Virus genome (UHGV): UHGV-2004451
Length of the DNA stretch: 11,886 nucleotides
Strand: one strand, 5' to 3'
Origin: a virus
Shown: piece after piece, positions 473 to 11,886 of the stretch
Layout: each line of letters opens with the position of its first letter
Position numbering within the stretch: position 1 is the stretch's first letter
Made by a program: the position numbers and the translations under genes
The notes under the pieces: generated by a model
Seen by the model: the letters and a program-made list of their open reading frames with translations, nothing else
The model's database searches: none
Told to the model about the DNA's origin: nothing

Positions 473-1255
473 ATGGCCAGATTGAAAACACCGATTTCAT
501 ACTATGGCGGCAAGCAGATGCTTCTGAAGCATATCCTGCCGCTGATTCCCGAACATACGCTCTATACGGAAGCCTTCTGCGGCGGCTGCGCCGTGCTGTT
601 CGCCAAGCCGCCCGCGCAGTGCGAGGTCATCAACGACACGAACACCGAATTGGTGAACTTCTACCGCGTGGCGCAGACGCAGTATGCGGCACTCAAGGCG
701 ATGATCGACGCGACGCTCCACAGCCGCGAGATACACGCGCACGCACGGCATATCAACGAGCATCCGTCGTTCTTCACGCCCGTCGAGCGGGCTTGGGCGG
801 TGTGGGTCTGCACGAAGTTGGGCTTCGCCTCGATGATCGACGGGACGTTCGGCTACGACCGCAGCGGCACGACGACGCTGAAACTCCGCAATGCGAAAGA
901 AGCCTTCACGGAGGAGTTGTGCAGCCGCCTCGACCGCGTTACGGTCGAGTGCGAGGACGGCATCGATGTCATCCGCCGCTACGACTGTCCCGAAGCGTTC
1001 CACTTCGTCGATCCTCCTTATGTCGGCAGCGACTGCGGACACTACAACGGTACGTTCGACGAGGAGGATTTTTCGCGGCTGCTCGACACGCTCGCGACGG
1101 TCGAAGGGAAGTTCATGCTCACGATGTTTCCGCACGAGAAGATAGAACGCCTCGCCGCCCGGTACGGCTGGACGATCCATCGGCTCGACCGCACCATCAC
1201 CGCCTCGAAAGTCTCCCGCCGCCGGCAGGAGGAGTGGATCACGACGAACTACTGA
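473..1255 (+). CDS. Dam-family (D12-class, alpha-type) N6-adenine DNA methyltransferase
   Basis: ATG start 11 nt after the upstream stop. Motifs appear in the order typical of Dam-like enzymes: YYGGK near the N-terminus, EAFCGGCAV (FxGxG-type AdoMet motif I), NDTNTELVNFY, and the catalytic DPPY (FHFVDPPYVG) near the C-terminus. The overlapping ORFs 497..1348(-) and 619..1302(+) have Arg/Gly-rich shadow composition. Confidence 0.9.
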   Translation: MARLKTPISYYGGKQMLLKHILPLIPEHTLYTEAFCGGCAVLFAKPPAQCEVINDTNTELVNFYRVAQTQYAALKAMIDATLHSREIHAHARHINEHPSFFTPVERAWAVWVCTKLGFASMIDGTFGYDRSGTTTLKLRNAKEAFTEELCSRLDRVTVECEDGIDVIRRYDCPEAFHFVDPPYVGSDCGHYNGTFDEEDFSRLLDTLATVEGKFMLTMFPHEKIERLAARYGWTIHRLDRTITASKVSRRRQEEWITTNY

Positions 1256-1265
1256 TATCGCCCAT

Positions 1266-2225
1266 ATGGAACCGAATACTATCCATACCTGCGACGCTCT
1301 GACCGGTCTTCGGCTGCTTCCCGACGAGTCGGTGGACTGCATCGTCACTTCGCCTCCGTACTGGCAGATGCGCGACTACGGCATCGGCTCGATCGTATGG
1401 CCGGACGGTTGGTCGGGACAGTTGGGGTTGGAACCTACGCGCGAGGAGTTCATCGCGCATCTGTGCATGATCTTCGACGAGTGCCGCCGCGTACTGAAAC
1501 CCTCCGGCACGCTGTGGGTGAACTTGGGCGATTCGTATAGCAAACCATACAAATACAACCGCCGACAAGATCCCAAGTGGAGCGAGAATTCGAAGAACAG
1601 CGATTGCCTTATAGACATCAAGGTCGATACGGTGCGTCACCGTATTCCATCCAAGTCGCTCTGCAATATTCCGAACAAGTTCGCTGACGAAATGATCCTG
1701 CGCGGCTGGGTGCTGCGCAACGAGATCATTTGGTACAAGCCCGCCTGTATGCCCGCCTCCGTGCGGGATCGTTTTACGGTGGACTTCGAGAAGATGTTCT
1801 TCTTTACCAAGTCGCAGCGATACTATTTCGAGCAGCAGTTCGAACCGTATGCCGCTTCATCTTTCGACCGCTATAAAAATCCGGTAACGCTCAACGGCAA
1901 AAGCGAAAAGTATCGCTGCATCAGCGGAAAACCTCACGGACGCCTCGAGATAAATCCTCGCGGTCGCAATATGCGGTGCGTGTGGCGTATCCCTTATGAA
2001 CCGAGCCACGAGGCGCACTATGCCATGTATCCTTCGCGATTGGTCGAGACGCCGATCGAAGCCGGATGTCCCGAAGGGGGACTCGTTCTCGATCCCTTTA
2101 TGGGCAGCGGAACGACGGCAGTCGTCGCCCGACGATTAGGACGCCATTACATCGGCTTCGAACCCAATCCGGAGTATGTCGCAATTTGCGAGAAGAGACT
2201 CGAACAGCAAACCCTCTCCCTTTGA
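1266..2225 (+). CDS. Beta-class N4/N6 DNA methyltransferase (N6_N4_Mtase-type); the SPPY catalytic motif favours N4-cytosine or N6-adenine specificity
   Basis: ATG start 10 nt after the stop of the upstream methyltransferase. Catalytic motif IV SPPY (CIVTSPPYW) is N-terminal and AdoMet motif I (VLDPFMGSGTTAVVARRLGRHYIGFE) is C-terminal, which is the beta-class order. A lower-G+C central segment (about 1540-1700) sits where a target-recognition region is expected. Confidence 0.9.
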   Translation: MEPNTIHTCDALTGLRLLPDESVDCIVTSPPYWQMRDYGIGSIVWPDGWSGQLGLEPTREEFIAHLCMIFDECRRVLKPSGTLWVNLGDSYSKPYKYNRRQDPKWSENSKNSDCLIDIKVDTVRHRIPSKSLCNIPNKFADEMILRGWVLRNEIIWYKPACMPASVRDRFTVDFEKMFFFTKSQRYYFEQQFEPYAASSFDRYKNPVTLNGKSEKYRCISGKPHGRLEINPRGRNMRCVWRIPYEPSHEAHYAMYPSRLVETPIEAGCPEGGLVLDPFMGSGTTAVVARRLGRHYIGFEPNPEYVAICEKRLEQQTLSL

Positions 2226-2226
2226 T

Positions 2227-3003
2227 ATGTCTTCGCATACTTACGACAATCCCGCCTATATCGCTTCGTGCTCGTTCGGCAAGGATTCGATCGCTACGAT
2301 CCTCCTTGCCCTCGAGCACGGCGAGCCGCTCGATGCCGCCGTCTTCTCGGAGGTGATGTTCGACCACTGGCGCAATATCAGCGGCGAGATACCCGAACAC
2401 ATCGAGTGGATCTACTCGACGGCTATTCCGCGTCTTGCAGCCTTGGGCGTACGGGTCGATGTCGTCCGTTCGGAGAAAGACTATCTTACGTTATTCCATA
2501 CGGTCATAGGGAGCGGTACGCATAAGGGTATGCTGCGCGGCTGGCTCATCGGCGGCAAGTGCTGCGCCAACCGCGACCTCAAAATCCGGCCCATACATCA
2601 TTATTACGGTCGTTTCCGCAAGCAGGGCGTCGTGCAGTACGTCGGCATCGCGGCCGACGAACCGAGACGCCTCGCGCGGATGCAGGACAAAGGGTATATC
2701 CGTAAAACAAGTCTGCTCGCCAAGTACGGGTACACCGAGGCGGATGCCCGACGCAAGTGCGAAGAATACGGTCTGCTGTCGCCTCTCTACCGAACCTCGC
2801 ATCGGGGCGGTTGCTGGTTCTGCCCCAACTGCCGCATACCGGTCTTCGCCGAACTGCGCCGCCGACATCCCGAACTGTGGCGCGAACTGCAACGGCTTTC
2901 GAAGGTCGGAAATAAGTCATCCGAAGGCTTCAAATACGGGCAGACTTTCGAGGAGATCGAGCGGAGGATGGATCTCTTCGAACACGCGCCGACGCTATTC
3001 TAA
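2227..3003 (+). CDS. PAPS-reductase / DndC-like PP-loop ATP pyrophosphatase family protein (putative nucleotide or DNA modification enzyme)
   Basis: N-terminal PP-loop-like motif SCSFGKDS (SxGxDS type) and a C-terminal cysteine cluster CWFCPNC. The ATG at 2227 lies 1 nt after the TGA of the upstream methyltransferase (TGAtATG), implying translational coupling. An in-frame ATG at 2176 would overlap the upstream gene by 50 nt and is considered less likely. Confidence 0.7.
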   Translation: MSSHTYDNPAYIASCSFGKDSIATILLALEHGEPLDAAVFSEVMFDHWRNISGEIPEHIEWIYSTAIPRLAALGVRVDVVRSEKDYLTLFHTVIGSGTHKGMLRGWLIGGKCCANRDLKIRPIHHYYGRFRKQGVVQYVGIAADEPRRLARMQDKGYIRKTSLLAKYGYTEADARRKCEEYGLLSPLYRTSHRGGCWFCPNCRIPVFAELRRRHPELWRELQRLSKVGNKSSEGFKYGQTFEEIERRMDLFEHAPTLF

Positions 3004-3007
3004 ATAA

Positions 3008-3090
3008 CTGAAAATAAATATGATAATAGTTGCCGGATAACTTGCGTGTTCCGAATAACGATGTTATGTTTGCAGTACGATAAACAACTG
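3008..3090 (+). promoter_or_regulatory. Promoter repeat copy 1 (Bacteroidota-type -33 TTG / -7 TATGTTTG)
   Basis: An ~82-bp AT-rich element about 95% identical to copy 4. TTG at 3042-3044, a 20-nt spacer, and TATGTTTG at 3065-3072 match the TTTG-N19-21-TAnnTTTG consensus of Bacteroidota primary promoters. The leader contains GATAAACAACTG. It lies directly upstream of gene 3118..3540. Confidence 0.6.
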
Positions 3091-3117
3091 AATAATAAAC
3101 GATTAAAACACCCGAAC

Positions 3118-3540
3118 ATGACAAGTGCACAGGCAAAACAGATCGCATCGAACTATATGCGGCAGCAGAGCGATTACGTATTTTCGGCGGTAACGGTTAA
3201 AAGCCTCGCTCCGGCGAACGGACCAGTTAAGGTGTGGCTCACCACCGAAGACGACTACGGGGACGAACTGATCGTCGAGGTCGAGATGGACCCGCAGTCG
3301 AATGAGATCCGCTGGAAGAAGATCTGCAACACGGGACGCCTATCCGAATATCTGAAGCCGGCTACTCGGATCGATAAACTTTCGGCAGGACAACGCTTCC
3401 GGCTGCAAGGCGACTGCGTGGTTTACGAGTTCGTGGACAATGTAAAGGACCGCAGCAGTATTCCCTATATCATCCGACGGGCGGACCGGTCCGGTTGCGT
3501 ATCGAGAGTCGGATGGCAGGAAGTTTTTCCTATCGAGTAA
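3118..3540 (+). CDS. Hypothetical small protein (141 aa), first gene behind promoter repeat copy 1
   Basis: The ORF track gives 3046..3540, but its GTG start lies inside the promoter repeat (-7 box at 3065-3072). The first ATG downstream of the predicted transcription start is 3118. Balanced amino-acid composition; stop TAA at 3538-3540 is followed by a hairpin at 3550-3576. No recognisable motif. Confidence 0.6.
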   Translation: MTSAQAKQIASNYMRQQSDYVFSAVTVKSLAPANGPVKVWLTTEDDYGDELIVEVEMDPQSNEIRWKKICNTGRLSEYLKPATRIDKLSAGQRFRLQGDCVVYEFVDNVKDRSSIPYIIRRADRSGCVSRVGWQEVFPIE

Positions 3541-3808: not shown

Positions 3809-3819
3809 CGTGTAAGATA

Positions 3820-3901
3820 TTGAAAATAAATGCGATAATAATTGCAGAAAGACTTGCGTGTCCCGAATTATGATGCCATCTTTGCAGCGTGATAAACAAC
3901 T
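3820..3901 (+). promoter_or_regulatory. Promoter repeat copy 2 (degenerate -7 box CATCTTTG)
   Basis: Same element with several substitutions. TTG at 3854-3856, 20-nt spacer, CATCTTTG at 3877-3884, then GATAAACAACT at 3891-3901. Directly upstream of gene 3917..4249. Confidence 0.5.
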
Positions 3902-3916
3902 AATATAGAGCGTATT

Positions 3917-4249
3917 ATGAGTACAAAAGCAAGAATCGGAGTAAGACTTCCCGACGGAAAAATCAAAAGCATCCATATATGGCGGGACGGACATCCCGAT
4001 ACGTTGGGCGAAATGTTGTCTGCGCACTACAATACATTGGAATCGGCAATGGCACTGGTCGAACGAGGCAACATAATCGATGTGGAGGCACGTCTCGAAG
4101 AGTGCCGGTTCGAGAAATCGAATGAACGGTGCGAAACCGAGCCTCGGATTTATAAAACGGTCGCCGCCTACGAACGAGAAATCGAGGAGGATATATGTTA
4201 CAAATATCTCTATCGGGACGGCAAGTGGGAATACCGGGCGGTCGATTAG
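3917..4249 (+). CDS. Hypothetical small protein (110 aa), behind promoter repeat copy 2
   Basis: ATG at 3917, about 25 nt downstream of the predicted transcription start of promoter copy 2. Protein-like composition with a Glu-rich C-terminus. Followed by a structured 3' region containing hairpins at 4285-4302 and 4337-4367. Confidence 0.65.
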   Translation: MSTKARIGVRLPDGKIKSIHIWRDGHPDTLGEMLSAHYNTLESAMALVERGNIIDVEARLEECRFEKSNERCETEPRIYKTVAAYEREIEEDICYKYLYRDGKWEYRAVD

Positions 4250-4469: not shown

Positions 4470-4533
4470 AGTTGTCGATAAACTTGCGCGTCCCGAATAA
4501 TGATGTTATGTTTGCAGTGCAACAAACAATTGA
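4470..4533 (+). promoter_or_regulatory. Promoter repeat copy 3 (core only; upstream part divergent)
   Basis: TTG at 4484-4486, 20-nt spacer, TATGTTTG at 4507-4514, with the conserved core CTTGCGCGTCCCGAATAATGATGTTATGTTTGCAGTGC. The leader motif is altered to CAACAAACAATTG. Upstream of gene 4560..4778. Confidence 0.55.
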
Positions 4534-4559
4534 ACTACAATCTATTAAACGACTCGATC

Positions 4560-4778
4560 ATGAATACTGCGAATCGAAAAAGAACGGAGATCGACGCCGA
4601 ACTCGACCGGTTGGAGGTCGAATTCGAAAAGAACCGTAAGGAGATGCAAGGCCTTGCCGACGAGAACAGACGTGCCGGCAACCGCTACGGCGAATTATCG
4701 AATGCGAATCACGACATCAACAACCGGATCCTCACATTGCTCGCTGAGCGTTGGGAATCGGAAGAGACGGCTGATTGA
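4560..4778 (+). CDS. Hypothetical small coiled-coil protein (72 aa), behind promoter repeat copy 3
   Basis: The ORF track gives 4500..4778, but that start lies inside promoter copy 3 (-7 box at 4507-4514). The first ATG in the leader is 4560. The sequence is charged with heptad-like spacing (EIDAELDRLEVEFEKNRKEMQGLADENRR). Stop TGA at 4776-4778 is followed by a GC-rich hairpin. Confidence 0.55.
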   Translation: MNTANRKRTEIDAELDRLEVEFEKNRKEMQGLADENRRAGNRYGELSNANHDINNRILTLLAERWESEETAD

Positions 4779-5096: not shown

Positions 5097-5106
5097 ACCT
5101 AATTTA

Positions 5107-5188
5107 CTGAAAATAAATACGATAATAGTCGCCGAACAACTTGCGTGTTCCGAATAACGATGTTATGTTTGCAGTACGATAAACAACT
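5107..5188 (+). promoter_or_regulatory. Promoter repeat copy 4 (near-identical to copy 1)
   Basis: TTG at 5141-5143, 20-nt spacer, TATGTTTG at 5164-5171, leader GATAAACAACT at 5178-5188. About 4 mismatches to copy 1 over 82 bp. Directly upstream of gene 5204..5491. Confidence 0.6.
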
Positions 5189-5203
5189 AAAAAAGAGCGA
5201 ATT

Positions 5204-5491
5204 ATGAGAACGAACATCGAACGGTTTTTAGAGAGATTCCCGAAGAATGCCACGAATTGGGCGCAGGCGACGGACGAGGTGCGCGACATGGCTCGCAAGG
5301 CTCGCGAATTGTTGGAAGAGTACGAAGGCGTCATCGTCGAACCGGTAAATTTCCGGGCTATCGAGACCCCGGCCGAGTGGAATACCGAAGGTCGCGAGTT
5401 CATCCTGACGAATTTCGATCGCATGGCGGATAGGACCAAAGAGCGCTTCTACGACTACTTCCGCGAGTGGTTCGAAGGCGAAGAGGAATAG
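5204..5491 (+). CDS. Hypothetical small protein (95 aa) with acidic C-terminus, behind promoter repeat copy 4
   Basis: ATG at 5204, about 25 nt downstream of the predicted transcription start of promoter copy 4. C-terminus is FREWFEGEEE. Stop TAG at 5489-5491 is followed by a perfect 14-bp hairpin at 5500-5536. Confidence 0.65.
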   Translation: MRTNIERFLERFPKNATNWAQATDEVRDMARKARELLEEYEGVIVEPVNFRAIETPAEWNTEGREFILTNFDRMADRTKERFYDYFREWFEGEEE

Positions 5492-5499
5492 ACCGACGC

Positions 5500-5536
5500 A
5501 CGGATGCTCCCCGCAGCTCGAACGGGGAGCATCCGT
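5500..5536 (+). terminator. Strong hairpin downstream of gene 5204..5491
   Basis: ACGGATGCTCCCCG-CAGCTCGAA-CGGGGAGCATCCGT: a perfect 14-bp stem beginning 9 nt after the stop codon. No U-tract follows. Confidence 0.5.
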
Positions 5537-5594
5537 CCTAACCCCGGAGTAGGGTTGCACACGTCGTCTCTTTCGATAGGAAATCTATCGTGCT

Positions 5595-5672
5595 CCATCA
5601 GTTGTTTATTGCAGCCGGAGCCGCATCATGTGCGGCTCCGGCAATCTCATTATAGAGGGACTTTGTTTCAGC
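5595..5672 (+). repeat. Conserved structured 3' element, copy B
   Basis: CCATCAGTTGTTTATTGCA, then the same hairpin core, then GGGACTTTGTTTCAGC. About 85% identical to copy A with a structure-preserving substitution in the stem. Confidence 0.6.
5614..5642 (+). terminator. Hairpin (core of conserved 3' element copy B)
   Basis: GCCGGAGCCGCA-TCATG-TGCGGCTCCGGC: a perfect 12-bp stem. Homologous to the 4337-4367 hairpin, with a compensatory T-A to C-G change at the loop-proximal pair. Confidence 0.5.
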
Positions 5673-5716
5673 GATGAGGCCTTTTGCCATTTTACCTTTA
5701 TTCCCGCGACAAAGGT

Positions 5717-8581
5717 ATGGCGATTTTCGGTCTAAAATATTACGCTGAACTTCGCTCGAAGTACAAGGGCGTTTTGTGGCGCGTGGAGATTTCGGAGCGG
5801 GGGTACGCAGGTCCGTCGGAGGAGATGGCCTTCGACGGCGGTACGCCGTTGCAGATTACGTGGGAGAAACGGGGCGACGAGTTCTACGTGCCGGTCAAGG
5901 CTTCGGAGGCGACCATCAATATCCTCTGCAAGGAGAATTTCCATTACCTGGCTCTGTTCACCTCCGATCCCCGTTATTTTCGCGTCTCGATTTTCCGCAA
6001 TCGGCAGCTCTATTGGCGGGGCTACGTCACCTCCGACCTCTACTCCGAGAACTTCACCGCTCCGCCCTATACCGTTACGATCAAGGCCGTGGACGGCTTC
6101 AACCTCTTGTCGAGCATTCCGTTCCGCGACCTCGTACATATCGGCATCGCGGGCAGGCGGTCGCTATGGGAACTGCTCTCCTCCTGCATCGACTTGTTGG
6201 AGTTGGATCTCGATACGGCGGACTGGATGGATCTGTATGTCGAGGGCATGGACGAGAACGCCTCTTCGCTCCGTCAAACCTATATCGACCTCGAACGGCT
6301 CTACTACGTCTACGAGGAGCCTACCTATCGCGACATCCTCGAACTGTGCCTGCGTCCGTTCGCCGGACAGATCTTCCAGTCGAACGGTGCCCTGCATATC
6401 CGCCGCGCCGTATCGCTCTACCGAACTGCCCGTCCCGTGAATTTCTATCGCGTCGGCACGGAGCATCCCGTCGGGCGGATCGTTACGGGCAGCGGACTGC
6501 GGCTCGTGATCCATACCGGTGCGCAGGTCGTCACATCGGCTGCACGCGAGCGCATCGACGGCATGTGGACGGGCGACCTGCACATCGAGGGAAGTTCGAC
6601 GCTCGACATCGTCCCTGCGCTGCGCAAGGTCTCGGTCGATGTAAAGAACAAGAGCCTCGACAACCTGATCGCCCGCATCGGGTTCTACGATCCCGACGCT
6701 TGGACGGATCCGCACGGCTTCGTCTCCGTGAAGAGCGGAGAGGAACTCTATTTCAGCGGCGAGGATGCCTATCGGGGTGCGGAAGTCGTAACTCGGGGCT
6801 TTCCCGTCGAGCAGTGCAACTTCCCGCTCGTATGGGAGTTCGGGTTGCAGACCTACCATCGGGAGTGGGGACTGGGCATTTACCGCCCGAACGAAAGCGT
6901 CGATGTCGCGGTGCATTACGGCGTCCGCATCGTCGGCGAAAAGGCGACATACAGCCTCGCCGAGAGCGGTTCGTGGGTGCAGTCCTCCGACGGGGAGATC
7001 GCGAGTACGGTCAAGACCGGCAACGAGCAGAACATGAAGATCGAGATCGACGGCATCCCCTGCGACGGCGAGTGGCGGTTCTTCGTCCGGCAGACGCTCA
7101 TCGGCAAGATCACGACCTATACCGACCGCTTCGGCAATCCGAGCGGCCGCACTTCGGGCTATATGGAGAGCGCCGCGTTCCGCAAGATGACGCTCTCGAT
7201 CGATGCGGGCGACAGCTACGACAAGGGTTTGCGCTACGAGTCGCTCGTCGATCCCGCGAACAATGTCGATATGTCCGTAACGCTTCCCGTGAGCGATATT
7301 CCCGCCATTCCGAACGACCGGCTGCTCTATGCGCTCTACTACCTCGATGCCGCCGGCAATCCCACGCGCATCTGGCATACGAAAGGTCGGAACGACTACG
7401 ACACGCTGGTCGGTCATATCGTGCAGGGAGCATTGCGGTACAAGCAGCTGCCGAGCCGGCGCATCACGGGCGAGATCTTCACGGGGCAGCATATCGATAT
7501 GAATACGGTGGTTCGGGACGACAAGTTCCTGAACGCCGCCTATTACCTGAACTCCATCGAACTGAATGCCCTCGACGACTCCTACAACAGCGAACTCACG
7601 GAGATGCCGCGCCTGCTCGCAACGGAGAGACCGCCGGAGGGCGACGACTGCATAGCGGTCGCGACGCTCTCCTTCACGGTCGGCAAGGCGATCCGCTGCC
7701 TGAACCGTCTGCTGCTCCAGTCCGTCGATAAAAAGACGGTCTATGCCTTCGACACCGCCACGCGGCAGGTACGGGAGATCTACCGCAGCACGGCATCCTT
7801 CGAGATGTACGAGGCGGACGAGGGTTTCGTCGCGGTGGACGGGAAAGGGGTCCGCTACCTCGACTATCGCGGTACGGTCGAACGGATATATACCCCGCCG
7901 GAGGAGTACCGCAACGTCGCGACCTACATGGACGGATATATCCATATCCTGAAATCCTACCGGCAATATATCGGTCCGCGGGGCGGCGATGCCGGCGGAC
8001 GCAGCGCCCGCACGGCAGAGGACGAGGATCCGAACTATCGCACCTATCGTTACCTCTCGCGCCCGGAGTGCAAGTACATTTCGCCCGATGCCTCGACCGG
8101 ATATCGCGGACGGGGATATGCCTACGAGGGTACGCCGATGTCGGGTGCGATCCTCGCCCTGCGGCGTACGGAAAATACGATCGTCGTGAATACCTCGCAT
8201 GGCGCCTATCTGCACGACAAGCGGTTCCACCAGCCCTGTAAGATGCTGCAATTCGCTGCGGGCGAGCAGATCGTCACCGTCTCCGACAACTATATCGGCA
8301 TCAACGCCGACGATATGCTGTGGTTCTATCGGCGGGATTCGATTACCGAGCGGACGCTGCTCCGGCGGTTGGGACGCTGGGCGGATCACGCCGACCATAC
8401 GATGAGCGAGGTCGTACACTCCTACGACGACGGCATCTTCATCCGGAACTTCCGCGACGACACGACGACCGACGTTCGGAACGCCGCCGGCTGGGGCGAG
8501 AACATCATGGGGCTGTTTTTCATCTGCGGCGACCTCTATATCGTGCGCGAACGGGCGATTTACAAATACATTCCTGAATAA
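5717..8581 (+). CDS. Large hypothetical protein (954 aa from the first ATG; 965 aa if the TTG at 5684 is used); possibly a virion or tail-associated structural protein
   Basis: This is the only one of three overlapping long ORFs with protein-like composition (aromatic-rich, balanced). The overlapping 5776..7731(+) frame is Arg/Gly-rich and 6164..8854(-) is Ser/Arg-rich, both typical shadow ORFs of GC-rich coding DNA. No Walker A or other catalytic motif was seen. The gene lies in the same + strand block as the tape measure gene. The function call is inference only. Confidence 0.75.
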   Translation: MAIFGLKYYAELRSKYKGVLWRVEISERGYAGPSEEMAFDGGTPLQITWEKRGDEFYVPVKASEATINILCKENFHYLALFTSDPRYFRVSIFRNRQLYWRGYVTSDLYSENFTAPPYTVTIKAVDGFNLLSSIPFRDLVHIGIAGRRSLWELLSSCIDLLELDLDTADWMDLYVEGMDENASSLRQTYIDLERLYYVYEEPTYRDILELCLRPFAGQIFQSNGALHIRRAVSLYRTARPVNFYRVGTEHPVGRIVTGSGLRLVIHTGAQVVTSAARERIDGMWTGDLHIEGSSTLDIVPALRKVSVDVKNKSLDNLIARIGFYDPDAWTDPHGFVSVKSGEELYFSGEDAYRGAEVVTRGFPVEQCNFPLVWEFGLQTYHREWGLGIYRPNESVDVAVHYGVRIVGEKATYSLAESGSWVQSSDGEIASTVKTGNEQNMKIEIDGIPCDGEWRFFVRQTLIGKITTYTDRFGNPSGRTSGYMESAAFRKMTLSIDAGDSYDKGLRYESLVDPANNVDMSVTLPVSDIPAIPNDRLLYALYYLDAAGNPTRIWHTKGRNDYDTLVGHIVQGALRYKQLPSRRITGEIFTGQHIDMNTVVRDDKFLNAAYYLNSIELNALDDSYNSELTEMPRLLATERPPEGDDCIAVATLSFTVGKAIRCLNRLLLQSVDKKTVYAFDTATRQVREIYRSTASFEMYEADEGFVAVDGKGVRYLDYRGTVERIYTPPEEYRNVATYMDGYIHILKSYRQYIGPRGGDAGGRSARTAEDEDPNYRTYRYLSRPECKYISPDASTGYRGRGYAYEGTPMSGAILALRRTENTIVVNTSHGAYLHDKRFHQPCKMLQFAAGEQIVTVSDNYIGINADDMLWFYRRDSITERTLLRRLGRWADHADHTMSEVVHSYDDGIFIRNFRDDTTTDVRNAAGWGENIMGLFFICGDLYIVRERAIYKYIPE

Positions 8582-8591
8582 GTGCGAAACT

Positions 8592-8966
8592 ATGGAAACA
8601 CTATCCATCATTCTGAACTTCATTCTTGCCAGCGGGTTGGCGGGAACGATCCTCTTTTTCAACGCGAAGAAGCGCAAGGAGAACGCGGCCGCCGACTCCG
8701 CCGAATTAGCGAACACGGAGAAGGTCGTGGCGATCCAATCCGAGCAGATCACGCGGCTGGACGGGCGCGTGGAGAAACTCGAAGAGAAGGTCGGCAAACT
8801 CGAAATCATCATCGAGCACAAGGACGTGGAGATCGACCGCAGCCGCATCGTCATCCGACAGGCCTACAAGTGCGAAACGCCGCCCGAACATTGCCCGGTC
8901 TTGCTCAAAAGAGCCGAGTTGGAGCGCAAGCGCAAAGAGACCGACGAAAATAACCGAAAATCATAA
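8592..8966 (+). CDS. Small membrane-anchored coiled-coil protein (124 aa); i-spanin-like or holin-like architecture
   Basis: ATG 11 nt after the upstream stop. N-terminal hydrophobic helix SIILNFILASGLAGTILFF followed by a charged heptad-like region (RLDGRVEKLEEKVGKLEIIIEHKDVEID). Two Cys near the C-terminus. The competing 8582..8953 frame is an Arg-rich shadow. Confidence 0.6.
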   Translation: METLSIILNFILASGLAGTILFFNAKKRKENAAADSAELANTEKVVAIQSEQITRLDGRVEKLEEKVGKLEIIIEHKDVEIDRSRIVIRQAYKCETPPEHCPVLLKRAELERKRKETDENNRKS

Positions 8967-9099: not shown

Positions 9100-9522
9100 A
9101 TGAACGAGAAAACTTTGCCGAGAGGGATGCGCAATCGTAATCCCGGCAATATCCGCCGGTCGGCGACGAAGTATCTGGGCGAAGTTGCGCCCTCGCGCGA
9201 TGCCGCATTCAAGCAGTTCGAGACGATGGCGTGGGGCTACCGCGCGATGTTCGTGCTGCTGGACTCCTACTCCCGCAAGGGCTACCGGACAATCCGGCAG
9301 ATGATCTCGCGCTACGCTCCGCCCATCGAGAACCATACCGAAAACTATATCCGTTGTGTGGCCGAATGGTCGGGTATCGGCGCCGACGAGCCGGTCGATA
9401 CGCAGGCGGGCGAGACGATGATTCCTATCGTGGCGGCTATGTCGCAGGTGGAAAACGGGCAACCGGCGGTACTATCGGACGTCGAGGCGGGCTGGACGCT
9501 CTATCTGCAACACAAACCCTAA
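9100..9522 (+). CDS. Hypothetical protein (140 aa) immediately upstream of the tape measure gene
   Basis: ATG at 9100; stop TAA at 9520-9522 lies only 6 nt before the tape measure start. Protein-like composition with the N-terminal motif RNRNPGNIR. Function not recognised. Confidence 0.65.
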   Translation: MNEKTLPRGMRNRNPGNIRRSATKYLGEVAPSRDAAFKQFETMAWGYRAMFVLLDSYSRKGYRTIRQMISRYAPPIENHTENYIRCVAEWSGIGADEPVDTQAGETMIPIVAAMSQVENGQPAVLSDVEAGWTLYLQHKP

Positions 9523-9528
9523 ACAGCC

Positions 9529-11886
9529 ATGTCCCGGAGAATCGCCGATTTACTTATAAAGATCGGAGCCGACTCGTATGAGTTCCAACAGAAGGCGCAA
9601 CAGGTCGAGAAAGGACTCGGCTCGCTCGAAAAGAAGCTGACCTCCGTCGGCAAGTCGCTCTCGCTGAAGCTCACCGCACCCCTTGCTGCATTGGGCGGCG
9701 TGTCGCTGCACCTGGCCGATGTGCAGGCCAAAGCCGAGGCGAAGGTGCAGCAGGCGCTCAAGGTTACGAATCAGGCCGTCGGTTACAACTTCCGGCAGTT
9801 GGCCGACTACGCTTCGGAGTTGCAGGGCAAGACACTCTTCGGCGACGAGACGATCCTCGACAAATCCACCGCCCGCCTGTTGGCTTTTACTAACATCACG
9901 GGCGAGAACTTCAAGCGTACGCAGGCGTTGGCATTGGACCTCGCCACGGCGTTGGAGATGGATTTGGGTTCGGCGTCGTTGCAGTTGGGCAAGGCGCTCT
10001 CCGATCCCGCGACGAAGCTCTCGTCGCTGTCGCGTGCCGGTATCGCCTTTTCCAAGGAGCAGACGGAGGTAATCAAGAAGCTCGCCGAGACGGGCGACAT
10101 AGCCAAAGCGCAGGCGATGATCCTCGACGAGTTGGAGCGCAAGTTCGGCGGGCAGGCCGAAGCCGCCGCACGGACGGGACTCGGCACCGTGCAGCAGCTC
10201 AAGAATGCGTGGGGCGACTTCCTCGAACGGATCGGTGCGGCCATCATGCCTTTCGCGACGAAGATAGCGGGTGCGCTCTCGACGGTCGTGCAGATGCTGC
10301 AATCGATGTCGCCGGCGATGATGCAGACGATCGTCGTCGTGGCGGGGCTGGTGGCTGCGATCGGTCCCCTTTCGCTCGGAATCGGCGCCGTGATCAAGGT
10401 GCTGCCGATGCTGGCGGCGGGATTTACGGCTCTGTTGTCGCCCGTCGGATTGATTATGGCGGCGGTCCTCGCGCTCGGTGCGGCATTCGCCTACGCCCGC
10501 CTCCAGAAGCAGAAGATGATCGACGAGATGGCCGAAACCGAATCGCTCGACGAGCTCGAACGCAAGTTGCAGGAGAATATCGCCGAGCAGAAAGAGATCA
10601 TCGCCACGACGACCAAGACGCGGATGGTTCCGAATTTCGGTGGATTGGTCGCCGGATTTATCTTGCAGAAAGTCCCCGACGAATCGAAACTCGCACCCCT
10701 GCGCAAGGAGTACGATCTGCTGACGGCAGCGATCGAAAAGAAACGCGAAACGGAGAAGAAGGCGGCCGAGGCGCAGGCCGAACTGGACAAGGTAACGGAC
10801 GAGGCTCGCAAGCAAACCGAGGAGTTGATGAAGTCCATCGCCGGAACCAACGCGCAGACGGAGCAGAGCACGGGCATCATCGGTAAATTGCAGGCGCGGA
10901 TCGAGGCCCTCGAAAAGAAGAAACTGCTGCCCGAATCGACCGTCGAGGATATCGCTGCGGCGAATGCCGAGATCGGGAAGCTACAAAAAGAGCTGGAGCG
11001 GATCCGAAATATCAAGCCCGAAGACCTGAAGCCCGTCGTCAAGATGGACGGTATTCTGCCCGCGGGCTTCGAGTTGGAACTGCCGGCTCCGAAACTCAAA
11101 ATGGGCGATCTGAAACCCGTAACATCGCAATATGCGCAGCAGATGCAGGCGATATTCGGTGCGGTGCGCGAAGGGCTTTACGGCTGGGCGGACGACAACA
11201 GCGCATACTTGCAAAATAACCTCGCCGATACGGTCTCGATGGTCGAGAACTACACGACAGCGCTGACGGCGAAGGGCTGGTCGTTCTCGGCGGCATTGGA
11301 GCATGTCCACGCCACGATTGCGGAGGTGATGACACGCTTCGATCAGCAGGTGTCGAAGTTTATGGCCGACAGCATCGTCGCTGCGGCGGAGGCTATCGGG
11401 CAGATCATCGCCGGCGATTTGGGATTCGGAGGGCTGATGAAAGCGATTCTGACGCAGTTCGCCAATTTTCTGAAAAATATCGGCTCGCAGCTCATCGAGT
11501 TCGGCGTGATGATCATCGCCTTCAAATCGGCGTTGAGATCCGTCCTCGCTAACCCGTGGGCGGCGATCGCCATCGGTGCAGCAATGGTCGCGGCAGCAGC
11601 CGTGATGACGGCGCTCATCAACAAGAATGCGCAGGAGAGCGTGCCGGCATTGGCCAACGGCGGTCTGGTATACGGTCCTACCTATGCGATGGTCGGCGAC
11701 AATCCCAATGCCGGTACGGATCCCGAAGTCATCGCTCCGCTGTCGAAGTTGCAGGCGATGCTCCCGACAGGCGGCAGCGCGCAGAACCTACGAATAACCC
11801 TCGGCGGTCAATTGACTGCCAAGGGTCGGGATTTGGTGTATGTTCTCGGAAAAGAGAACTTCAAGTCAGAGGTGCTGGGTGGGTGA
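9529..11886 (+). CDS. Phage tail tape measure protein (785 aa)
   Basis: The N-terminal region matches the conserved tape measure core signature as I recall it (LGKALSDPATKLSSLSRAGIAFSKEQTEVIKKLAETGDIAKAQAMILDELERKFGGQAEAA). It is followed by long Gly/Ala-rich hydrophobic segments (IMPFATKIAGALSTVV...GLVAAIGPLSLGIGAV and AIAIGAAMVAAAAVMTALI) and an extended Glu/Lys-rich coiled-coil region. Stop TGA at 11884-11886 coincides with the window end. Minus-strand and off-frame ORFs inside it are GC-shadow artefacts. Confidence 0.85.
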   Translation: MSRRIADLLIKIGADSYEFQQKAQQVEKGLGSLEKKLTSVGKSLSLKLTAPLAALGGVSLHLADVQAKAEAKVQQALKVTNQAVGYNFRQLADYASELQGKTLFGDETILDKSTARLLAFTNITGENFKRTQALALDLATALEMDLGSASLQLGKALSDPATKLSSLSRAGIAFSKEQTEVIKKLAETGDIAKAQAMILDELERKFGGQAEAAARTGLGTVQQLKNAWGDFLERIGAAIMPFATKIAGALSTVVQMLQSMSPAMMQTIVVVAGLVAAIGPLSLGIGAVIKVLPMLAAGFTALLSPVGLIMAAVLALGAAFAYARLQKQKMIDEMAETESLDELERKLQENIAEQKEIIATTTKTRMVPNFGGLVAGFILQKVPDESKLAPLRKEYDLLTAAIEKKRETEKKAAEAQAELDKVTDEARKQTEELMKSIAGTNAQTEQSTGIIGKLQARIEALEKKKLLPESTVEDIAAANAEIGKLQKELERIRNIKPEDLKPVVKMDGILPAGFELELPAPKLKMGDLKPVTSQYAQQMQAIFGAVREGLYGWADDNSAYLQNNLADTVSMVENYTTALTAKGWSFSAALEHVHATIAEVMTRFDQQVSKFMADSIVAAAEAIGQIIAGDLGFGGLMKAILTQFANFLKNIGSQLIEFGVMIIAFKSALRSVLANPWAAIAIGAAMVAAAAVMTALINKNAQESVPALANGGLVYGPTYAMVGDNPNAGTDPEVIAPLSKLQAMLPTGGSAQNLRITLGGQLTAKGRDLVYVLGKENFKSEVLGG

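Follow-up and report, generated by a model that had tools for sequence, protein, structure and literature searches.

A NinC-family PAPS-reductase-fold protein encoded next to DNA methyltransferases in an Alistipes prophage

The three-gene cassette and its prophage setting

The window (the whole analysed stretch of 11,886 nt, with 57% GC across it) contains a cassette of three plus-strand genes. The first one (473..1255) encodes a Dam-like D12-class N6-adenine DNA methyltransferase of 260 aa with the DPPY motif (PF02086, E = 1.6e-21; TIGR00571, E = 1e-20), and the second one (1266..2225), an N6/N4 DNA methyltransferase of 319 aa with the SPPY motif (PF01555, E = 4.8e-49; PHROG 67); both are orphan-type methyltransferases. 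The last gene (2227..3003) encodes a 258-aa PP-loop protein with the PAPS-reductase fold, assigned by profile matches and motifs to the NinC family (PHROG 424) and referred to below as the NinC-like protein. Its ATG lies 1 nt past the TGA stop codon (2223-2225) of the N6/N4 methyltransferase, exactly where the initial annotation had placed it, and the same start is found in public gene calls. On the source contigs the cassette is preceded, on the same strand, by the genes of capsid, connector, head-closure and tail proteins and by four small genes.

The element is a prophage in Alistipes genomes; Alistipes sp. MAG contigs carry the same gene with 80-94% identity. The exact 258-aa protein was found in 3,389 data blocks of public assemblies, where the contigs were often longer than 200 kb, and a megablast search of the window against a phage collection yielded no match. 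The Alistipes prophage with the pair of the D12 methyltransferase and the NinC-like gene is very prevalent in the human gut.

Downstream of the cassette we observed four intergenic copies of a repeat of ~100-115 nt (window positions 3001-3128, 3813-3940, 4470-4570 and 5100-5227), each followed by a small ORF. The 35-nt cores of these copies start at positions 3041, 3853, 4483 and 5140; no copy of the core arose in 200 shuffles, and no Rfam family was matched by the repeat. The core, CTTGCG-N-TAnnTTTGCAG, agrees with the Bacteroidetes -33/-7 promoter consensus (TTG, 20 nt, TAnnTTTG), established for Bacteroides promoters. Judging by this match, the repeats look like a duplicated promoter/5'UTR cassette that would drive the series of small genes downstream of the NinC-like gene. 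The first promoter-like copy (TTG-N20-TAnnTTTG; 3041..3075, plus strand) is situated right after the stop codon of the NinC-like gene and probably marks both the end of the unit with the methyltransferases and the start of the separately promoted small genes. In the upstream direction, the sole TAnnTTTG consensus on the same strand of the source contigs is located just before the capsid gene, and none occurs between this site and the stop codon of the NinC-like gene, which suggests co-transcription with the late genes. Thus, with a promoter consensus before the capsid gene only and a promoter-like element immediately after the NinC-like gene, the three-gene cassette seems to close a late transcription unit. 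Scans for sigma-70 promoters and terminators were uninformative for this Bacteroidota element.

The order of genes in the tail module is unusual. The methyltransferase cassette and the small promoter-bearing genes separate the major tail gene from the later tail module, which consists of a gene for a virion-protein-like product of 965 aa (954 aa as called; 5684-8581), a gene for a 124-aa protein (8592-8966), a gene for a 140-aa lysozyme/transglycosylase-like protein (9100-9522; PHROG 873) and, after these three and at the end of the element, a gene for a probable tape measure of 785 aa (9529-11886).

Several defence-type genes of the prophage were noted on the source contig L001, just outside the window. 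An Eco57I-type N6 methyltransferase and a BsuBI/PstI-type endonuclease are encoded directly upstream of the capsid gene (1-2280), an AbiEii/DUF6922 toxin-antitoxin pair lies antisense amid the head-tail genes (5385-6549, minus strand), and an NgoFVII/PLD-type endonuclease is encoded past the probable tape measure (19756-20777, minus strand).

Family placement and conserved residues

The NinC-like protein matches PHROG 424, annotated as 'phosphoadenosine phosphosulfate reductase', over residues 5-235 (E = 8.9e-32), and NinC of phage lambda is itself assigned to PHROG 424 (E = 1.2e-89). When the profile of the family was compared with lambda NinC by hhalign, homology was supported with a probability of 97.6% (E = 3e-12), the PP-loop, GGxxC and CxxC motifs being aligned. 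The same three motifs are aligned with two further phage proteins, p0018 of the Vibrio crassostreae podophage 44E38.1 (MW824398.1), whose PAPS domain is NinC-like (97.2%, E = 4.6e-11), and gp57 of the Burkholderia phage phiE125 (97.9%, E = 3.5e-13). By these profile comparisons, the protein is a member of the widespread and widely annotated lambda NinC family and not a new kind of system.

Both the Alistipes protein and lambda NinC (orf-290) are non-structural accessory proteins of temperate phages, and lambda ninC is dispensable (PMC10695390). Nevertheless, they differ in three respects: the identity is ~21%; the PP-loop is SFGKDS or SGGKDS in the family studied here versus SGGRTS in NinC; and the Alistipes gene resides in a methyltransferase cassette after the tail genes, whereas ninC belongs to the nin region, which separates the replication genes from Q.

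In a Foldseek search against PDB, the best fold matches were APS and PAPS reductases, and a search against viral models agreed with the placement. The fold is the PAPS-reductase variant of the adenine-nucleotide alpha-hydrolase fold, and the kinship with PAPS-reductase-fold PP-loop proteins claimed by the initial annotation is hence borne out both by the fold and by PHROG 424. PDB was also searched by sequence, with two profiles as well as with the protein alone, and nothing significant was found. A wider-family profile gave a weak match (E = 0.08; profile positions 106-219) to the 270-aa chain C, 'PptA', of PDB entry 21fy, with a DE..R motif and the CxxC aligned; this chain may be a newly solved relative.

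Conservation was analysed at two levels: in an alignment of 35 close homologues and in 49 representatives of the family, 32-47% identical to the window protein save for one close relative at 73%. The SxGKDS PP-loop reported initially is present as SFGKDS (S16 to S21); it is invariant among the close homologues and nearly invariant, mostly as SGGKDS, among the representatives. Only three cysteines are conserved across the family, namely C112 in the GGxC motif and C196 and C199 in the CWFC motif, while C113 and C15 vary among homologues. As for the C-terminal CxxCxxC cluster described earlier, C196 and C199 stand, but the third cysteine, C202, does not, many members having V, A, I, Q or G in its place. 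What is conserved is, then, a C...CxxC pattern with three ligands, similar to that at the Fe-S sites of TtuA-type thiolases, DndC and APS reductase. From the conservation of these cysteines we infer that the C112/C196/C199 triad is of the kind that holds an Fe-S cluster.

C202 is at the same time the last cysteine of the protein: the final 56 of the 258 residues, ending in ...RRMDLFEHAPTLF, are cysteine-free. The C-terminus lacks the catalytic ECG[LI]H motif of CysH proteins, and none of the aligned homologues has a conserved cysteine in the C-terminal tail. No Pfam family, PF01507 included, is matched by the window protein at E <= 0.01, and PF01507 is weakly matched by 11 of the 49 family members, with the best E-value of 2.7e-6. 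A firm placement in CysH with an intact ECGLH motif, the outcome that the initial annotation had set against its own proposal, was hence not obtained, as there is neither a PF01507 match nor a cysteine after residue 202. Compared with CysH proteins of known structure (PDB 2goy, 6vpu and 7lhr), the NinC-like protein is 11-17% identical, lacks the sulfur-assimilation context and has an ATP-type PP-loop. Since the catalytic cysteine of ECGLH and the Pfam PAPS_reduct match are both missing, the protein, as judged from its sequence, is not a sulfate-assimilation enzyme of the CysH type.

The nearest characterised cousins, by profile, are SspD and BrxP, the phosphorothioation (PT) sulfurtransferases of the SspABCD and BREX type 4 systems, respectively. 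Of the PADLOC defence models, for which no curated cut-off exists, these two were the only ones matched: the NinC-like protein matches SspD with E = 1.6e-12 over residues 113-244 only (positions 85-219 of the 277 in the model), and of the 49 relatives, SspD is matched by 48 and BrxP by 3. Like both sulfurtransferases, the protein has the PAPS-reductase fold and the ATP pyrophosphatase motif of the PP-loop; on the other hand, its match is confined to the C-terminal two-thirds, and no DUF4007/SspB module, SspC/BrxC ATPase or SspA is encoded nearby.

Two other placements were considered and rejected. Like DndC, a PAPS-reductase-fold PP-loop protein that has an Fe-S cluster and acts on DNA (PMC12914056, PMC12707154), the NinC-like protein has this fold and a PP-loop, but no DndC model was matched in NCBIfam or PADLOC, and dndBDE neighbours are lacking; with NCBIfam, the protein itself yields only sub-threshold fragments. 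A QueC profile match accompanied by neighbours of the 7-deazaguanine pathway (FolE, QueD, QueE, DpdA/TGT) was not found either, so neither the DndC-like nor the deazapurine affinity raised in the initial annotation was recovered by profile. The structural similarity to the Fe-S tRNA thiolases TtuA, NcsA and TtcA is real, but it is below that to the PAPS-reductase branch, and the tRNA PP-loop family PF01171 is weakly matched by just one of the 49 members.

Linkage to DNA methyltransferases

The genomic context was described for 169 loci at which relatives are encoded, taken from viral contigs, metagenomes and GTDB genomes. In their six-frame ORFs, with same-strand calling, SAM synthetase and the D12, N6/N4 and C5 methyltransferases were sought by means of seed HMMs.

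In the Alistipes lineage (NinC-like protein at least 73% identical; about 35 loci), the D12 methyltransferase is found upstream of the NinC-like gene at nearly every locus, either at a distance of 4-23 nt or farther away, with another methyltransferase or other DNA in between. The two loci without it are those with the shortest upstream flank, where just the intervening N6/N4 methyltransferase is visible. We observed the following variants of the cassette: D12 directly followed by the NinC-like gene; D12, N6/N4 and the NinC-like gene, as in the window; D12, C5, N6/N4 and the NinC-like gene; and D12, an intervening element x, the NinC-like gene and N6/N4. The N6/N4 and C5 methyltransferases thus come and go around the D12 methyltransferase and the NinC-like gene, and the N6/N4 one is missing from many sister prophages. 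The constant core is the pair of the D12 methyltransferase and the NinC-like gene, and the N6/N4 methyltransferase that adjoins the NinC-like gene in the window is a swappable insert. The constancy of this pair in a prevalent gut prophage makes it a convenient natural system for the chemistry of the NinC family, a question that dates back to the sequencing of the lambda nin region.

The family-wide count was based on 38 loci with 6 kb of flank or more, made non-redundant by clustering at 80%. A DNA methyltransferase occurs within 5 kb of the NinC-like gene at 16 of them (42%), always on the same strand, and is directly adjacent at seven. The methyltransferases tend to be close: 10 of 21 occurrences fall within 1 kb, compared to 20% expected under an even distribution (binomial p = 0.004). 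At the remaining 58% of the loci no methyltransferase was detected within 5 kb, and some family members are situated between the terminase and portal genes; hence the link is not obligatory. Co-occurrence with methyltransferases, which the initial annotation proposed to check, is thus positive, being strong in the Alistipes lineage, where it takes the form of adjacency to D12, and enriched though not obligatory in the family as a whole.

A different arrangement was observed in a lineage of Oscillospiraceae mobile elements. There, the gene just ahead of the NinC-like one encodes a full-length SAM synthetase (MetK; PF02773/02772/00438); the gap between the two is 3 nt in the locus L036. The synthetase gene is carried by L036, L042, L044, L047, L049, L033 and L060 and by about 55 related loci (e.g. 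L049:3628-4998). The gene string comprising DUF3846, MetK, the NinC-like gene, an unassigned gene and DUF7768 is conserved, and N6/N4 and C5 methyltransferases are located nearby. A Vescimonas element carries topoisomerase III, the NinC-like homologue, DUF3849 and, farther on, ArdA; other neighbours in the family include SSB, ParB, DUF4942 and weak radical-SAM matches. These other contexts are DNA-handling or anti-restriction regions.

Some apparent fusions were discarded. The 450-aa protein P0014, from one NCBI contig of 4 kb, resembles a D12-PAPS fusion, but it is a chimera produced by a deletion: the N6/N4 methyltransferase is gone, as are ~45 residues of the PAPS domain. It is probably a degenerate or misassembled copy rather than a functional fusion. 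The other long candidates (with integrase, TraG/TraD, PTS and decarboxylase sequences) join partial domains and probably reflect rearrangements or artefacts of gene calling.

The pairing of a PAPS-like protein with an adenine methyltransferase is documented in two other phages. In phiE125, the genes of a methyltransferase (gp56), a PAPS reductase (gp57) and a ParB-like protein (gp58) are situated in a row. In 44E38.1, p0018 combines an N-terminal PAPS domain with a C-terminal Dam methyltransferase (bioRxiv 10.1101/2021.05.05.442762), and a sister phage that received p0018 along with its neighbour p0019 became able to infect a Dnd-carrying host (Piel et al. 2022, bioRxiv 10.1101/2021.05.05.442762); the p0018 segment has since been cited as anti-Dnd (PMC13551039). 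As the two genes were moved together, the contribution of the PAPS domain as such was not isolated. The statement of the initial annotation that this gene combination had not been characterised is therefore too strong, given the genetically anti-Dnd PAPS-Dam segment of 44E38.1 and the annotated adjacency in phiE125.

The two systems are alike in that a NinC-like domain is paired with an N6-adenine methyltransferase and that alternative alleles or cassettes carry Dam and N4/N6 enzymes; indeed, the allele native to the sister Vibrio phage encodes Dam and an N4/N6 methyltransferase (bioRxiv 10.1101/2021.05.05.442762). They differ in architecture, as the Alistipes cassette consists of separate genes with the methyltransferases first and the PAPS-like gene last, whereas p0018 is one polypeptide with the PAPS domain first and Dam second. 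The Dam domain of p0018 is also annotated as a different methyltransferase family, and the anti-Dnd phenotype was observed with the Vibrio genes.

Possible function of the NinC-like protein

The explanation that we favour, giving it somewhat less than an even chance, is that the NinC-like protein would be a NinC-family Fe-S/PP-loop enzyme serving as an accessory of DNA self-protection (anti-restriction) of phages and mobile elements alongside the Dam-like methyltransferase. Conservation of both the ATP-type PP-loop and the cysteine triad argues that the protein is catalytically active and not a decoy. Judging by other PP-loop enzymes, it would adenylate a nucleic acid at the expense of ATP, and the adenylated substrate would then be substituted, probably with sulfur supplied by a cysteine desulfurase of the host. 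Sulfur is the most likely incoming group because of the Fe-S-type site and the kinship with SspD and BrxP, and DNA is the most likely substrate because of the linkage and fusion to DNA methyltransferases. The protein may act on the phage DNA directly or via phosphorothioation components of the host, and the phage would as a result be spared by restriction systems, PT-sensing or other. It could borrow host components, act alone or hit some other substrate.

One alternative is that the protein is a self-sufficient or host-assisted DNA phosphorothioation enzyme, so that methyl and PT marks would coexist in the phage DNA. By profile, PT sulfurtransferases are indeed its nearest relatives among characterised proteins, the PP-loop and the cysteine triad kept across the NinC family would fit such an enzyme, and a segment with a homologous domain defeats the PT-based Dnd system in the Vibrio phage. 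However, in the established systems described in the papers examined, that is, Dnd, Ssp and BREX type 4, the protein with the PAPS domain works with two partners, an ATPase of the P-loop/ORC type and a subunit that binds or nicks DNA (PMC12914056, PMC12707154), and a sulfur donor is needed as well. In the BREX-4 study both the PAPS-domain protein and the NTPase were required, PT being absent from gut isolates that had a PAPS-reductase gene but not the pair (PMC12914056). In the window and within 10 kb on either side we found no SspC/BrxC/DndD-type ATPase, nickase, SspB/DndE/DUF4007 protein or cysteine desulfurase, hence the context does not support canonical phosphorothioation, and the suggestion of it in the initial annotation finds no backing in the neighbouring genes. 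The missing DndC match also speaks against a PT enzyme, and in the literature examined we found no report of PT in phages with NinC-like genes. Overall, we regard this alternative as unlikely.

Another possibility is that the substrate is not DNA, the protein being an Fe-S tRNA thiolase similar to TtuA, NcsA or TtcA, or else a modifier of the nucleotide pool or of a signalling molecule that blunts host defence. Against it, the fold is nearer to the PAPS-reductase branch, a single representative touches PF01171, and the linkage to methyltransferases together with the fusion to Dam favours a DNA substrate. We hold a role of this kind to be quite unlikely.

Speculatively, and in our estimate with only a small chance of being correct, NinC-family proteins at large might be stand-alone ATP- and Fe-S-dependent DNA modifiers of mobile elements that mark phage DNA with sulfur (as PT or as a thiolated base) or with another group whose attachment depends on adenylation, without a Dnd/Ssp/Brx ATPase, possibly with a Dam-like partner for DNA targeting. 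If so, this Alistipes prophage, a very common one, would be disguised by an epigenetic combination of methyl and sulfur marks.

The cassette could also be the modification half of a prophage defence system guarding the lysogen, with the methyltransferases and the NinC-like protein marking 'self' for a restriction component encoded elsewhere in the element. The prophage is rich in defence genes (the Eco57I-type methyltransferase with the BsuBI/PstI endonuclease, AbiEii with DUF6922, the NgoFVII/PLD-type endonuclease), and PADLOC models match all three proteins. At the same time, no nuclease adjoins the cassette, both methyltransferases are of the orphan type, and homologues of the NinC-like gene are also present in phages of the lytic type and, beside ArdA, in regions of conjugative elements. 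Besides, the methyltransferase content varies between sister prophages while the NinC-like gene is constant, a pattern more typical of anti-restriction cassettes. We consider a defence module very unlikely.

The usual annotation of such genes, that is, an auxiliary metabolic gene (AMG) encoding a genuine PAPS/APS reductase by which sulfate assimilation of the host is enhanced, has in its favour the best fold matches (APS and PAPS reductases) and the 'phosphoadenosine phosphosulfate reductase' label in databases and many papers, but it is highly improbable here, as the ECG[LI]H cysteine is missing along with any other cysteine in the last 56 residues, PF01507 is unmatched by the window protein at E <= 0.01, the canonical ATP-PPase loop of the SGGKDS type is retained, no cys or sulfite-reduction genes are nearby, and the neighbours are phage structural genes and DNA methyltransferases in the window and DNA methyltransferases, SSB, ParB, topoisomerase and ArdA in the family.

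The distinction is relevant for virome studies, where NinC-like genes are routinely tallied as sulfur-metabolism AMGs. For the NinC-like branch considered here, the missing catalytic cysteine, the retained ATP-type PP-loop and the linkage to methyltransferases argue against the AMG label, which would be wrong for this branch, and point instead to a role in anti-restriction with nucleic acid as the target. Among the accessory genes of phages, prophages and conjugative elements, NinC-like 'PAPS reductases' rank with those annotated most often, and our search with the family profile retrieved 2,145 clusters (50% identity) at E <= 0.001.
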